64,000 nucleotides of DNA, taken from assembly GCA_041659205.1 (NCBI GenBank), contig JBAZYS010000001.1, positions 54,090 through 118,089 of the forward strand, in the 5' to 3' direction. The stretch comes from Minisyncoccota bacterium (GTDB lineage: Bacteria > Patescibacteriota > Minisyncoccia > Phycocordibacterales > UBA9973). Of this stretch, positions 1,572-56,193 are shown one piece after another. Position 1 is the first letter of the stretch, and each line of letters starts with the position of its first letter. The notes beneath the pieces were generated by a model, which searched no databases, had not been told where the DNA came from, and worked only from the letters and a program-made list of their open reading frames with translations. The translations under genes were made by a program, and so were the position numbers.

Positions 1572-4830
<3,259 letters not shown>

Positions 4831-4840
4831 AGAGTGTCTT

Positions 4841-4927
4841 GGAGGCGTCGCATAGCGGTCTAGTGCGCAGACCTGGAAAGTCTGTGTGGGGAAACCCACC
4901 GAGAGTTCGAATCTCTCCGCCTCCGCC
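4841..4927 (+). tRNA. tRNA-Ser (anticodon GGA), long variable arm
   Basis: The cloverleaf was folded by eye. The acceptor GGAGGCG/CGCCTCC and the anticodon stem CAGAC/GTCTG pair. The anticodon loop is CTGGAAA, giving anticodon GGA. The variable arm has a GTGGG/CCCAC stem. The T-arm is GAGAG-TTCGAAT-CTCTC. The discriminator is G and only CC of the CCA is encoded. Confidence 0.85.
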
Positions 4928-4933
4928 TTAAAA

Positions 4934-4961
4934 AGAAAAGCCCGAAAGGGCTTTTCTTTTT
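4934..4961 (+). terminator. rho-independent terminator after tRNA-Ser
   Basis: The hairpin aaaagccc-gaaa-gggctttt is followed by a T-run (ctttttg). Confidence 0.6.
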
Positions 4962-4995
4962 GCTGAGGCGAGCAAATAAACTGCTTTGTTTGCGT

Positions 4996-5097
4996 GAGAG
5001 ATTCGAAAGACTTTTCTGTAATTTGTTTACAAATTTAGAAAAGTACCTGGCTATGTAATAGCCGAAAAGTGTACTCACGGTCTCTCCGCCTCCGCCA
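4996..5097 (+). repeat. degenerate duplicate of the tRNA-Ser 3' half (T-arm-like plus acceptor 3' strand with CCA)
   Basis: gagagattcgaaagac (4996-5011) resembles the T-arm. tctctccgcctccgcc-a (5081-5097) is an exact copy of the tRNA 3' end (4912-4927). The two pieces are separated by about 70 nt containing an AT-rich hairpin. Confidence 0.45.
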
Positions 5098-5137
5098 GAG
5101 TTGAATTCTATATCTTTGAAGTAGGAAGTGTTATAAT

Positions 5138-6451
5138 ATGCTTATTCTTATGGACAAGATAAAGAGAAAATTTAATGTATTAAATTTTGTTTTATTTTTA
5201 TTTTTTATTTTAGCATTTGTTAATTTTTTCATAATACGTTCTTCTTTGGACAGTGAAAAAGAAACAAGTATTAATTTTATTTTATTAATTATAAACATAA
5301 TCGTTGTTGGTCTAGGTGCTTTTTTTAGTTTTCTATTTGCTAGAAAAATAGAAGAATCGAAAGTAAAAGATGAAGCTATCTTGGAAAGTGTTGGTGATGG
5401 ACTGATTGCTGTAGACAACAATAGAAAAATATTAGTCATAAACCAAGTAGCCATTGATATGCTTGGCTGGAATGGCAAGGATTTGGTCGGAAAAGAGGCG
5501 AGTCATCTCAATTTAGAAGATGAAAATGGTAAATTAGTACCATTTAACAAGCGCCCAACGGTCGTTGCTTTGGCGACTGGTAAAATTGTAAAGGTTATTT
5601 ATTTTTTTGTCCGTAAAGATAAAAGGAGATTTCCAATGGCGATAACCGCTACACCGATTAAACTCAACGGAAAAACAATTGGAGTAATTAAAATAATGCG
5701 AGATGTAACTTATGAAAAAGAAATTGATAAAGTAAAAACAGAATTTGTTTCAATAATTAGTCATCAGCTTCGAGGTCCACTTTCTTCGGTTAAATTATAT
5801 ACGGAAATGATATTAAACGGTGATACAGGAGAAGTCACCCCAAAACAAAGAAAATATCTCGACGAAATATATCATGATAATTTATGGATGATAGAAATGG
5901 TTAATACTCTTTTAGATGTTTCTCGTCTTGAATTAGGAATATTTAAAATTGAGCCAAAGCCGACGGATATTATCGCACTTACAGAGAGTGTTATCAAAGA
6001 ACAAGAATTTAAAATCAAGGATAAAAAACTTAAAGTTACTAAAAATTTTGATAAAAATATTTCAATTTTCTCGACTGACCCAAAGCTTCTTCACATGGTC
6101 CTGCAAAATTTACTTTCTAATGCGGTGGAATATACATCTTCAGAAAAAGAAATTGAATTTTCAGTTTCTTTAGATAATAAAAAATCTTTATATATTAAAA
6201 TAGCTGACCATGGTTATGGAATACCAAAAAAACAACAGAACCAGATATTCACTAAGCTTTTCAGGGCTGATAATGTTAAATATAAAGGAATCGATGGTAC
6301 TGGATTAGGTCTTTATATTGTAAAATCAATTGTGGAAAAGCTCAATGGAAAGATATGGTTTGAGTCGGAAGAAGATAAAGGGACTACTTTTTATATAACG
6401 CTTCCTTATTGTGACATTGAGGCAAAAAAGGAGCTTGGTCAAAATTGCTAG
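5138..6451 (+). CDS. sensor histidine kinase (2 TM, PAS, HisKA, HATPase_c)
   Basis: The H-box is SIISHQLRGPLSS and the G2-box is GIDGTGLGLYIVKSIVEKLNG. An N-box is present in NLLSNAVEYT. The N-terminus has hydrophobic helices. Confidence 0.85.
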   Translation: MLILMDKIKRKFNVLNFVLFLFFILAFVNFFIIRSSLDSEKETSINFILLIINIIVVGLGAFFSFLFARKIEESKVKDEAILESVGDGLIAVDNNRKILVINQVAIDMLGWNGKDLVGKEASHLNLEDENGKLVPFNKRPTVVALATGKIVKVIYFFVRKDKRRFPMAITATPIKLNGKTIGVIKIMRDVTYEKEIDKVKTEFVSIISHQLRGPLSSVKLYTEMILNGDTGEVTPKQRKYLDEIYHDNLWMIEMVNTLLDVSRLELGIFKIEPKPTDIIALTESVIKEQEFKIKDKKLKVTKNFDKNISIFSTDPKLLHMVLQNLLSNAVEYTSSEKEIEFSVSLDNKKSLYIKIADHGYGIPKKQQNQIFTKLFRADNVKYKGIDGTGLGLYIVKSIVEKLNGKIWFESEEDKGTTFYITLPYCDIEAKKELGQNC

Positions 6452-7065: not shown

Positions 7066-8328
7066 ATGAAAAATTTTAAAAAAAATGCAATTGTAATTAT
7101 GTTAGCATTTGCTTTAGTTATCGGTTTTAGCTCATTAAATACTGTCCAAGCGGCAACTGCACCTTCTCTTGGCCTAGCGGCAACTTACGGTATTCTTTCA
7201 AGTACTTATACTAATACTGTAGCAGGAACTACTGTTACTGGAGATATTGGATTTACCACAGGTCCAGCAGTTGCTCCCGTGGGAGTACATGCTAATTATG
7301 GTTCTGGCGCCCCTTTTGCTACTGCTGGAATAGATCAAGGTAGTGCTTTAGCTAATCTCAATAGCCAAGCTTGTACTTTCACCTTTGCTAACGGAGCAAT
7401 TGATCTTGCCACTGACGCTACACATGGTCCAATCGGAGTTTATACTCCCGGAGTTTACTGTACTGGAGCTCCCGGTGCTGCAACCATTGGAGCAGGCGGA
7501 ATTACCTTAAATGGCGCAGGAACATATATCTTTAGAATTAACGGTGCACTTACTTCTGTCGCTAATTCAGTAGTGACATTGGCTGGTGGTGCATCAGCTT
7601 GTGATGTATTTTGGACACCAACTTCAGCCACGACACTCGGCGCAAACTCTATATTTAAAGGAACGGATATTGATGCTTCGGGTATTACCGTTGGTAATAC
7701 TGTAAATTGGGTTGGAAGGGCTTTAGCTTTCGGCGGGACGGTCACAACCGATGTAGATAATATTTCTGTTCCATCTTGCTCAGTTCCTCCTCCAGTACCA
7801 CCTGTTCCTCCTTCAATGGCTACTCTTCATGTAATTAAACAAGTAGTGAACAATAGCGGTGGTACTGCTGTTGCATCCGCCTTTAATTTACATTTGAAAC
7901 TTTCAGGAACTGATGTTTCTGGAAGTCCTGCAGTTGGAACTGTGGCACCTGGAACTTCTTATACACTTGCTGCCGGTACATATACAGTAAGTGAAGACGC
8001 AAATAGTCTTCCTTATATACGAAGCTTTACTGGAGACTGTGATTCAAGTGGAAGCATTACGCTCGTAGGTGGTGATAACAAAACATGTACTCTTGTTAAT
8101 GATGACATAGAGCCAGCCGTAATCGTGCCACCAGTAGTTACACCACCAGTTGTAGCACCAGCAGTCATAACTCCAGTAGTTGTAACTCCTCCACCAGTTG
8201 TGCCCAAATTACCTAAAACTGGTTTTGCTCCTAAAGAAGAAAATTCTTCATGGAATATAATAATTTCAGCTGGAATTTTGGGAATGATATTTGCATTCTA
8301 TTTAGCTCGAAGAAAACAGACCAACTAG
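7066..8328 (+). CDS. LPXTG-anchored surface protein with N-terminal ice-binding-like (DUF3494-type) domain and Pro-rich stalk
   Basis: A signal peptide is followed by an N-terminal GILSSTYTNTVAGTTVTGDIGFTTGP region. Pro/Val-rich repeats follow, then a C-terminal LPKTG, a hydrophobic segment and the tail RRKQTN. Confidence 0.8.
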   Translation: MKNFKKNAIVIMLAFALVIGFSSLNTVQAATAPSLGLAATYGILSSTYTNTVAGTTVTGDIGFTTGPAVAPVGVHANYGSGAPFATAGIDQGSALANLNSQACTFTFANGAIDLATDATHGPIGVYTPGVYCTGAPGAATIGAGGITLNGAGTYIFRINGALTSVANSVVTLAGGASACDVFWTPTSATTLGANSIFKGTDIDASGITVGNTVNWVGRALAFGGTVTTDVDNISVPSCSVPPPVPPVPPSMATLHVIKQVVNNSGGTAVASAFNLHLKLSGTDVSGSPAVGTVAPGTSYTLAAGTYTVSEDANSLPYIRSFTGDCDSSGSITLVGGDNKTCTLVNDDIEPAVIVPPVVTPPVVAPAVITPVVVTPPPVVPKLPKTGFAPKEENSSWNIIISAGILGMIFAFYLARRKQTN

Positions 8329-8347
8329 TAAACGTTTTTAGAATTAT

Positions 8348-8962
8348 ATGAATTTATCTAAAATATCATCGAAATGGTTAGTAGTTATTATTGTAGGAAT
8401 TATATTTTCTGCTATAGTAATTTCATTTCTAACTTTTAGTCTACCAGTGAAGGATTCTTTTGCAGAAGCATCTTTTGTTAAAACACAGTCAGTTTTATCA
8501 GCGAAAGCAGATTTAGAATATTCATTTCGTTTGAAGATTCCAAAGATAAATGTAGATGCAACTGTAGAAAATTTAGGTCTTACTTTCGATGGTGCAATGG
8601 AGGTGCCGAAAGGTCCAGCTAACGCTGCTTGGTATAGTTTAGGAACTCCACCTGGGGACATAGGTAGTTCTGTTATCGACGGACACTCTGGGTGGAAAAA
8701 TGGTATACCGGCAGTATTTGATAATTTATATAAATTAAAAAAAGGAGACAAAATATACGTTCAAGACAAGAAAGGGATAGTTACGACTTTTGTTGTACGA
8801 GAGAGTCGCAAATATAATCCAAATGCAGACGCAACAGGAGTATTTACCTCGAGTGACGGTAAAGCACATTTGAATCTTATCACTTGTACGGGTCTATGGA
8901 ATAAAATTTGGAAAAGTCACTCAGAGAGACTTGTAGTTTTTGCTGATAAAGAGCTAAAATAG
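8348..8962 (+). CDS. sortase (transpeptidase)
   Basis: An N-terminal TM anchor is present. The catalytic His is in VIDGHSGW, the Cys in NLITCTG (TLxTC motif), and an Arg in HSERLVVF. It lies 20 nt downstream of the LPKTG protein gene. Confidence 0.8.
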   Translation: MNLSKISSKWLVVIIVGIIFSAIVISFLTFSLPVKDSFAEASFVKTQSVLSAKADLEYSFRLKIPKINVDATVENLGLTFDGAMEVPKGPANAAWYSLGTPPGDIGSSVIDGHSGWKNGIPAVFDNLYKLKKGDKIYVQDKKGIVTTFVVRESRKYNPNADATGVFTSSDGKAHLNLITCTGLWNKIWKSHSERLVVFADKELK

Positions 8963-56096: not shown

Positions 56097-56120
56097 TTTT
56101 GAACCTATATTAACCTGTTG

Positions 56121-56193
56121 AGCCGCCTCTCGGATTCGAACCGAGGACCTTCACTTTACAAAAGTGTTGCTCTACCAACTGAGCTAAGGCGGC
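56121..56193 (-). tRNA. tRNA-Thr (anticodon TGT)
   Basis: The reverse complement folds as follows. The acceptor is GCCGCCT/AGGCGGC. The D-arm is GCTC-AGTTGGTA-GAGC. The anticodon loop is TTTGTAA. The T-arm is CTCGG-TTCGAAT-CCGAG. One A-A mismatch closes the anticodon stem. Confidence 0.85.

Follow-up and report, generated by a model that had tools for sequence, protein, structure and literature searches.

A base-paired module with arms matched to the preceding tRNA gene is a probable miniature mobile element of CPR bacteria

Introduction

Why is the end of a tRNA gene written twice, a short way apart on the same strand? In the window, by which we mean the whole 64-kb stretch of DNA analysed here, the last 16 nt of an intact tRNA-Ser(GGA) gene recur downstream of it, ahead of a histidine kinase gene. 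The original prediction regarded the stretch from 4996 to 5097 as a degenerate, split copy of the 3′ half of this tRNA and offered two origins for it: the scar of a lost island, or a split or permuted tRNA. The window is placed, from its ligase, in Candidatus Nomurabacteria/Paceibacterota, within the CPR (Patescibacteria), bacteria with tiny genomes for which few mobile-element mechanisms have been described.

Here we find that the repeated tRNA end belongs to a conserved base-paired module whose arms are tuned to the preceding tRNA, and which stacks in arrays and brackets cargo. We think it probable, if well short of certain, that 4928-5096 is a non-autonomous miniature mobile element of a kind that sits behind tRNA genes in CPR bacteria.

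Results

The tRNA end recurs exactly, with complementary copies in between

TCTCTCCGCCTCCGCC, the last 16 nt of tRNA-Ser(GGA) (4912-4927), has an exact second copy at 5081-5096 that is followed by A5097, as originally predicted, and the copy finishes in a CCA-like end, GCCA, at 5094-5097. With up to two mismatches allowed, these are the only two matches in the 64 kb; shuffled sequence yields 0.00, and the chance expectation of such an exact repeat is 0. The sequence is identical to that of the window's element in an independent assembly (Logan SRR18595301, L182), so it is no assembly artefact; an exact look-up of the response regulator whose gene accompanies the kinase in the window returned the same strain only.

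The second piece of the predicted split copy, GAGAGATTCGAAAGAC, is found where it was said to be, at 4996-5011, but does not repeat the T arm in direct orientation. It looks like a T arm only because TTCGAA is palindromic; the part at 4996-5007 (GAGAGATTCGAA) is the reverse complement, at 12 of 12 positions, of the T-loop and the 3′ strand of the T-stem (4906-4917). A further complement had been overlooked: 4962-4970 (GCTGAGGCG) is a 9-nt complement of the 3′ strand of the acceptor stem together with G73 and C74, in which T4964 is a mismatch to the family consensus, GCGGAGGCG. The feature begins at 4928, directly after the tRNA, and not at 4996 as predicted (Table 1). The 169 nt contain no ORF, and the hairpin at their left end was not flagged by a consensus terminator scan.

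Table 1 Features of the element and its surroundings, in window coordinates
Feature	Coordinates	Strand	Evidence or remark
ligA, NAD-dependent DNA ligase	2641-4830		gene upstream of tRNA-Ser(GGA)
tRNA-Ser(GGA), intact, target gene	4841-4927	+	ARAGORN; Rfam RF00005 at 4841-4925, 55.6 bits
Direct repeat copy (1): T60, T-stem 3′ strand, acceptor 3′ strand, G73, C74, C75	4912-4927	+	exact repeat
Whole inserted element, 169 nt	4928-5096	+	repeat start-to-start spacing 169; orthologs L185, L183
Terminator-like hairpin, left-end module: A-tract, GCCC-GAAA-GGGC, T-tract	4930-4961	+	14-nt arms, 100% complementary
Segment (2), inverted copy of acceptor 3′ strand + G73 + C74; 5′ strand of P1	4962-4970	+	fold
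P2 hairpin, 9 bp, CUGC loop	4972-4993	+	fold, covariation
Segment (2′), inverted copy of T-loop + T-stem 3′ strand; 5′ strand of P3	4996-5007	+	12/12 complement
P4 hairpin: base ACUUUUC/GAAAAGU conserved, tip variable	5010-5044	+	fold, covariation
P5 hairpin, GGCUAU-GUA-AUAGCC	5048-5064	+	fold, covariation; 3 of 4 modelled pairs covary
P6 mini-hairpin, GUG-UACU-CAC, 'long' subtype only	5069-5078	+	fold
Direct repeat copy (3): 3′ strands of P3 and P1, right boundary of the element	5081-5096	+	exact repeat; A5097 next
PAS/HisKA histidine kinase	5138-6451	+	Pfam; host gene outside the element, conserved right flank

The second copy bounds inserted DNA

Loci syntenic with the window were found through kinase orthologues of 74-75% identity. 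In L185, which has the same order of ligA, tRNA-Ser and kinase, the tRNA end runs directly into the conserved promoter region of the kinase, and both the insert and the second copy are absent. In L183 the tRNA is followed by a 49-nt filler (3381-3429) containing a hairpin, GTCCC..GGGAC, and then by TCTCTCCGCCTCCGCC; this filler could be the product of a deletion or a mini-unit of another type. Sequence related to it is also located after the element of L156. L186 carries a different type of unit at the syntenic site. The tRNA-Ser site is a dynamic hotspot, and the 169 nt of the window are one of its fillings. The predicted att-type duplication stands to this extent, that the second copy of the tRNA end bounds inserted DNA. 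A conserved structured element had been set against an insertion as the alternative; the segment is structured and conserved, and an insertion is nevertheless seen.

A second comparison is provided by L059 and L061, which are about 99% identical around tRNA-Ser. L061 carries exactly 148 extra nt, the left hairpin module included; a 23-nt repeat of the tRNA end, CGAATCTCTCCGCCTCCGCAAAT, marks their limits. We have little doubt that 4928-5096 is a mobile insertion belonging to a conserved family.

Among ligA-linked tRNA-Ser(GGA) loci from GTDB genomes, the same downstream feature is present in L061 only (1 of 54). These 54 come from 80 Nomurabacteria/Paceibacteria genomes (L001-L080), in which ligA adjoins tRNA-Ser(GGA) with the tRNA on either strand, suggesting repeated local inversion.

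The element belongs to a family in metagenomes

We searched metagenomes with the 19-mer GRGATTCGAAAGACTTTTC and obtained 95 stretches, of which the majority are true homologues. From a seed alignment of 19 sequences we derived a consensus structure and from it a covariance model, R1. The model matches the window once (4962-5095, 152 bits, E 1e-38) and the ligA loci, 719 kb in all, also once; the metagenome loci give 112 matches. The distinct matches number 98. Taxonomy is known for the window, L061 and the ligA loci, and most of the metagenome contigs are unclassified. Divergent unit types, ending in ...TTCGAACTTTGT..ACACCGCC, precede some elements (upstream of the R1 matches in L156, L110 and L147, and at 1-28 of L186); model R1 misses them, so the family is wider than counted.

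Searches of existing collections gave nothing comparable. Rfam 15, applied to 4700-5300 at E ≤10, returned the tRNA and noise, with nothing credible in 4960-5100. Four scans of IMG/VR with conserved blocks gave 0 true matches, the six 17-mer matches being chance occurrences in coding DNA, and BLAST against phage and plasmid collections gave no match to the element. A description of the element family was not found in a limited search of the literature. This is apparently a large, undescribed family in CPR bacteria.

The arms match the neighbouring tRNA

A tRNA gene lies on the same strand, at most 400 nt upstream, in 80 of the 98 distinct matches. The tRNA genes that the elements follow represent 17 anticodon species, five of them Ser, along with Arg, Val, Pro, Gln, Leu, Ile, Cys and His; in L141, all four of the four tRNA genes have an element. 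Segment (2′) tracks the T-loop of its own tRNA, such that TTCGATT is matched by AATCGAA, TTCAAGT by ACTTGAA and TTCGAGT by ACTCGAA, and its exact matches have a median length of 12 nt with the cognate tRNA and 8 nt with non-cognate tRNAs. The start of segment (2) likewise varies with the tRNA: it is GC with G73 tRNAs, GT with A73 tRNAs, and TGGC where CCA is encoded. G·U pairs of the tRNA are mostly not carried over: in 14 of 15 such cases the element is Watson-Crick complementary to the 3′ strand. It follows from these matches that segments (2) and (2′), which P2 separates, together repeat the last ~21 nt of the tRNA gene in inverted orientation. Between the arms, the sequence need not change with the tRNA; a 45-nt core is identical between Ser-, Pro- and Arg-specific arms at different loci.

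We made two further observations on the tRNA genes themselves. In the CPR loci L001-L175, the tRNA genes examined mostly encode N73 and C74 and diverge from there, with no C75-A76 (for example, at 4925-4929 of the window), and a minority encode the full CCA. ARAGORN also reports a tRNA-Ser with anticodon ACT at 2565-2651 of L111 and in L098, L114, L121, L126, L145, L153, L166 and L168, usually close to tRNA-Ser(GCT) on the same or the opposite strand; a Ser tRNA with A34 is unusual for bacteria.

The fold is conserved and its mismatches suggest pairing at the DNA level

In the predicted fold, P1 pairs 4962-4970 with 5087-5095 and P3 pairs 4996-5003 with 5079-5086, with P4, P5 and P6 enclosed within P3; these last three are the hairpins that had been expected between the two pieces. 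Folded as RNA, 4960-5100 reaches -49.1 kcal/mol (z = -5.8). Folded as single-stranded DNA, both strands behave alike, with z values of -6.05 and -6.87.

Covariation supports this structure. The seed alignment has compensatory double changes in 18 of 34 pairs. Across the 98 distinct sequences, aligned by fitting to the model so that the counts lean towards the structure, standard pairs fill 95.3% of pair cells, compared with 41-51% when partners are slid, and both sides change in 30 of the 34 pairs. In the same model-fitted alignment of 98 distinct copies, all nine pairs of P2 covary and 98.5% are paired. The loops and junctions CUGC, GAAAG and UACC are strongly conserved.

A strong RNA-style fold, extensive covariation in P2, P3 and P5 and conserved loop and junction sequences are what a functional small RNA gene would show. 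Such a gene would make a mimic of the acceptor/T-arm minihelix, by read-through or from a start of its own; the product might be bound by tRNA-binding enzymes or toxins as a decoy or substrate, or might regulate the adjacent tRNA, and the insertion polymorphism would be gene gain and loss only. The unit from (2) to (3) would also be followed by a terminator, in the integrated and in a circular form alike. We consider an RNA gene unlikely, given the kind of mismatches that the stems tolerate. G·U mildly exceeds A·C in the stems of the element, at 77:48 (P2 18:6, P3 23:14, P1 31:23), whereas true RNAs from the same loci, the acceptor and T stems of 95 tRNAs, give 39:2. This difference argues for pairing at the level of DNA over pairing at the level of RNA, although neutral decay of inactive copies of an RNA gene could be another source of the ratio.

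Several other features stand against an RNA gene. The arms are perfectly complementary even at positions where the tRNA has G·U. No promoter-like site was found on the + strand ahead of the element, and a hairpin with a T-tract stands directly upstream, between the tRNA and segment (2). There is no match to an Rfam family, and the truncated, stacked and mosaic copies resemble mobile DNA. The synthetases of some of the target tRNAs read the anticodon, and the element has none.

The inverted repeat also extends past the tRNA end. When segment (2) and the 5 nt upstream of it are compared with the two direct copies, copy (1) with its 3′ flank is the better match in 19 cases and copy (3) with its flank in 3, with 13 equal. 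This preference indicates that the inverted repeat does not stop at segment (2) but takes in the base of the hairpin, which is what joining the two ends of the element in a circle would give. These indirect signs favour pairing at the DNA level and an excised intermediate.

Units stack, exchange modules and bracket cargo

Tandem, nested or truncated units occur at many loci, and the left hairpin module differs among copies at one site. L130 and L171 have flanks that are 99% identical, and yet their hairpin modules, P4 modules and 3′ tails are different. In L106, L133 and L164, two copies 2.7 kb apart flank an N6_N4 DNA methylase and an MvaI/BcnI endonuclease; ORFs of unknown function lie between other pairs of elements. 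The cargo is positioned between a copy of the tRNA end and the next hairpin and segment (2), for example in L111 and L106. An ORF in L110 (3917-4540) starts inside the 3′ end of an element (3802-3935) and matches the ART-PolyVal ADP-ribosyltransferase. ART-PolyVal occurs in polyvalent proteins of mobile elements, and this ORF is possibly cargo.

No recombinase is linked to the element. Pfam searches of 136 representatives of neighbouring ORF families showed no recurrent recombinase, transposase or RT among the 25 most frequent families, and clustering of the neighbouring genes gave housekeeping families and one restriction-modification system only. When all ORFs of all loci were searched with phmmer, using an approximate E. 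coli XerC sequence as the query, there was one Xer-like match, 3.8 kb from an element. The integrase genes that the original prediction proposed to look for were found close by neither here nor in related loci, and Pfam found no recombinase among 20 proteins of the window. Other genes of the window include two pilin-like proteins with N-terminal methylation motifs upstream of ligA (491-1570), a surface protein with Ice_binding and SpaA_2 domains followed by a sortase (7066-8962), and a single ORF that joins a NusB domain to a NUDIX hydrolase domain (23075-24025).

These data bear on the proposal that the segment is the degraded scar of a larger island or prophage, one that carried an integrase, had integrated into tRNA-Ser and has since been lost by deletion. 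Islands of this kind have a direct repeat of the tRNA 3′ end as their hallmark (PMC4383910; 10.1101/2020.12.28.424599), and some related copies do bracket cargo. The 169 nt, however, are a complete conserved module, matched by the covariance model over its full length, and this module of ~110-170 nt, whole and with one architecture, occurs 112 times; the difference between L059 and L061 is exactly one such module. One and the same structured remnant behind 17 different tRNAs is not what independent deletions would produce. Fragments of an integrase were found neither in the loci nor among neighbouring ORFs, and the phage, plasmid and IMG/VR collections are without matches. The scar is thus largely refuted, and we hold it to be very improbable.

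A decayed tandem duplicate of tRNA-Ser, whether a pseudo-tRNA or the split or permuted tRNA first suggested, is hardly credible and can be taken as refuted: the segment does adjoin the tRNA on the same strand and has its 3′ end in common, but ARAGORN (which reports only 4841-4927 and 56120-56193 in the window) and Rfam detect neither a tRNA nor a tmRNA there, the 5′ segments complement the tRNA's 3′ strand, including N73-C74, and are not copies of its 5′ strand, and one internal core is found beside Ser, Pro and Arg tRNAs.

Other candidates were considered and set aside. A tRNA-Sec, a tmRNA-like RNA or an H/ACA-like guide does not fit, there being no anticodon loop or ORF and the element holding its own 'target'. 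For the remnant of a retron or group II intron, an RT is absent and the sizes and ends are unfitting. A MITE derived from a DDE transposon is contradicted by the left end, which is an A-tract hairpin, by the inverted segment (2), which is internal and not terminal, and by the lack of a fixed-length duplication, the repeat being 16-23 nt and equal to tRNA sequence. A staggered duplication of the Casposon or CRISPR kind was dropped as not needed.

Discussion

A folded DNA that may be mobilised in trans

The miniature mobile element that we take 4928-5096 to be would consist of a terminator-like hairpin, the inverted segments (2) and (2′), a core of P4 and P5 with or without P6, and the direct copy (3) at its right end. 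We propose that it moves as a small excised DNA, probably circular and probably single-stranded. In this excised form the lone copy of the tRNA end would pair with (2) and (2′) and so mimic the 3′ end of a tRNA gene, in a duplex capped by the hairpin on one side and by P4 and P5 on the other, with P2 protruding. Recombination of this fold with the 3′ end of a tRNA gene would be the work of a trans-acting enzyme whose gene lies elsewhere in the genome; candidates are a tyrosine recombinase, as at integron attC and CTX-phage attP sites, or an HUH transposase, as in IS200/IS605. The expected product is an intact tRNA followed by hairpin, (2), P2, (2′), core and (3), which is the arrangement observed, and the hairpin with its T-tract would halt transcription of the tRNA ahead of the antisense segment. 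In the loci searched we found no excised form, no enzyme and no autonomous parent element, so this mechanism is deduced from the anatomy. We regard a folded DNA mobilised in trans as plausible, though we stop just short of calling it probable.

To our knowledge, the known recombinases do not account for arms fitted to 17 different tRNAs. One may go further and suppose that CPR bacteria have a programmable system of cassette integration, in which a conserved core of ~60 nt and its hairpins carry exchangeable sense and antisense arms that name the tRNA 3′ end to be targeted; this seems to us possible but doubtful. The target would then be set by pairing in folded DNA or RNA and not by a protein, a step about which we are equally hesitant. 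By analogy, and just as speculatively, the logic could be like that of integrons or bridge RNAs, with every tRNA gene a docking site and the candidate enzyme encoded elsewhere.

The element is very small, has no recombinase, makes tRNA genes into docking sites, and moves between near-identical strains. If the arms do define the target, it would amount to a compact integration module that can be retargeted, and would also account for gene gain beside tRNAs without integrases borne on islands. The covariance model and the rule for the arms let annotators recognise units that current tRNA and Rfam tools overlook.

Comparison with known systems

One close parallel is with the islands that target tRNA genes (Islander, tycheposons, and lambdoid and P4-type integrase elements with T-loop sublocation). 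Like these, the element adjoins a tRNA gene at its 3′ end and leaves it intact, with a displaced partial copy of the tRNA 3′ end at its far end (4912-4927 and 5081-5096) and a block of identity that reaches from the T loop to just beyond the end of the tRNA. Its units likewise stack, separated by partial tRNA copies, and their presence varies among close relatives. In contrast to the islands, the element is only 110-170 nt long and has no integrase of its own, its neighbours in the window being ligA and the kinase, where the islands encode tRNA-specific integrases. It also carries the att core a further time in inverted orientation, paired with the direct copy. tRNA-targeting islands have the direct repeat of the tRNA 3′ end and an intact tRNA (PMC4383910). 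In the tycheposons of Prochlorococcus each tRNA has its own integrase (10.1101/2020.12.28.424599), whereas here one closely related family serves 17 tRNA species.

The order of the parts is that of integron cassettes. An attC site is defined by its fold, and the sequence there runs from core to cargo, inverse core, variable terminal structure and core again; cassettes have no recombinase, stack in arrays, and include very short 'empty' ones. The element matches this order, has folding inverted repeats with covarying P1 and P3, forms arrays and lacks a recombinase. It differs in having no RYYYAAC/GTTRRRY core, its ends being GCGGAGGCG ... CGCCTCCGC or tRNA-specific equivalents, and intI is found neither in the tested ORFs of the window nor near related copies. 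In place of attI there would be any of many dispersed tRNA genes; pairing involves a core of ~21 nt that is identical to the target, and an extra hairpin, P2, interrupts one strand.

In CTX-phi, attP(+) is made of two inverted segments of folded single-stranded DNA that mimic chromosomal dif for XerCD, a host enzyme acting in trans. The concept is alike, but the element targets a tRNA gene end where CTX-phi targets dif, it comes without a phage genome, and its single-strandedness is a deduction only.

The miniature derivatives of IS200/IS605 elements (PATEs) are small, structured and non-autonomous, with subterminal hairpins, insertion just 3′ of a target, an internal guide that pairs with this target, precise excision and a target-like cleavage sequence at the right end. 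The element has hairpins at its left end (4930-4961) and near its right end (P5, P6), and is inserted directly after the tRNA, but its repeat is 16-23 nt long. Known guides and targets in IS200/IS605 are 4-5 nt, whereas the guide-like pairing of the element is ~21 nt; TnpA or TnpB families do not recur among the neighbouring ORFs, and there is no Rfam match of the omega-RNA type.

Finally, the element recalls tRNA-like structures (the tmRNA domain, viral TLS, mascRNA) in having acceptor-like and T-stem-like helices made from tRNA sequence and a CCA-like end. It lacks a D arm and an anticodon arm, the T loop is not kept as a loop, and its wobble statistics are unlike those of RNA; its 5′ strand pairs with N73-C74, and thus there is no free NCCA end. 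We class the element as a variant of tRNA-targeting mobile DNA that falls outside the families of the islands, integrons, CTX-phi and IS200/IS605.
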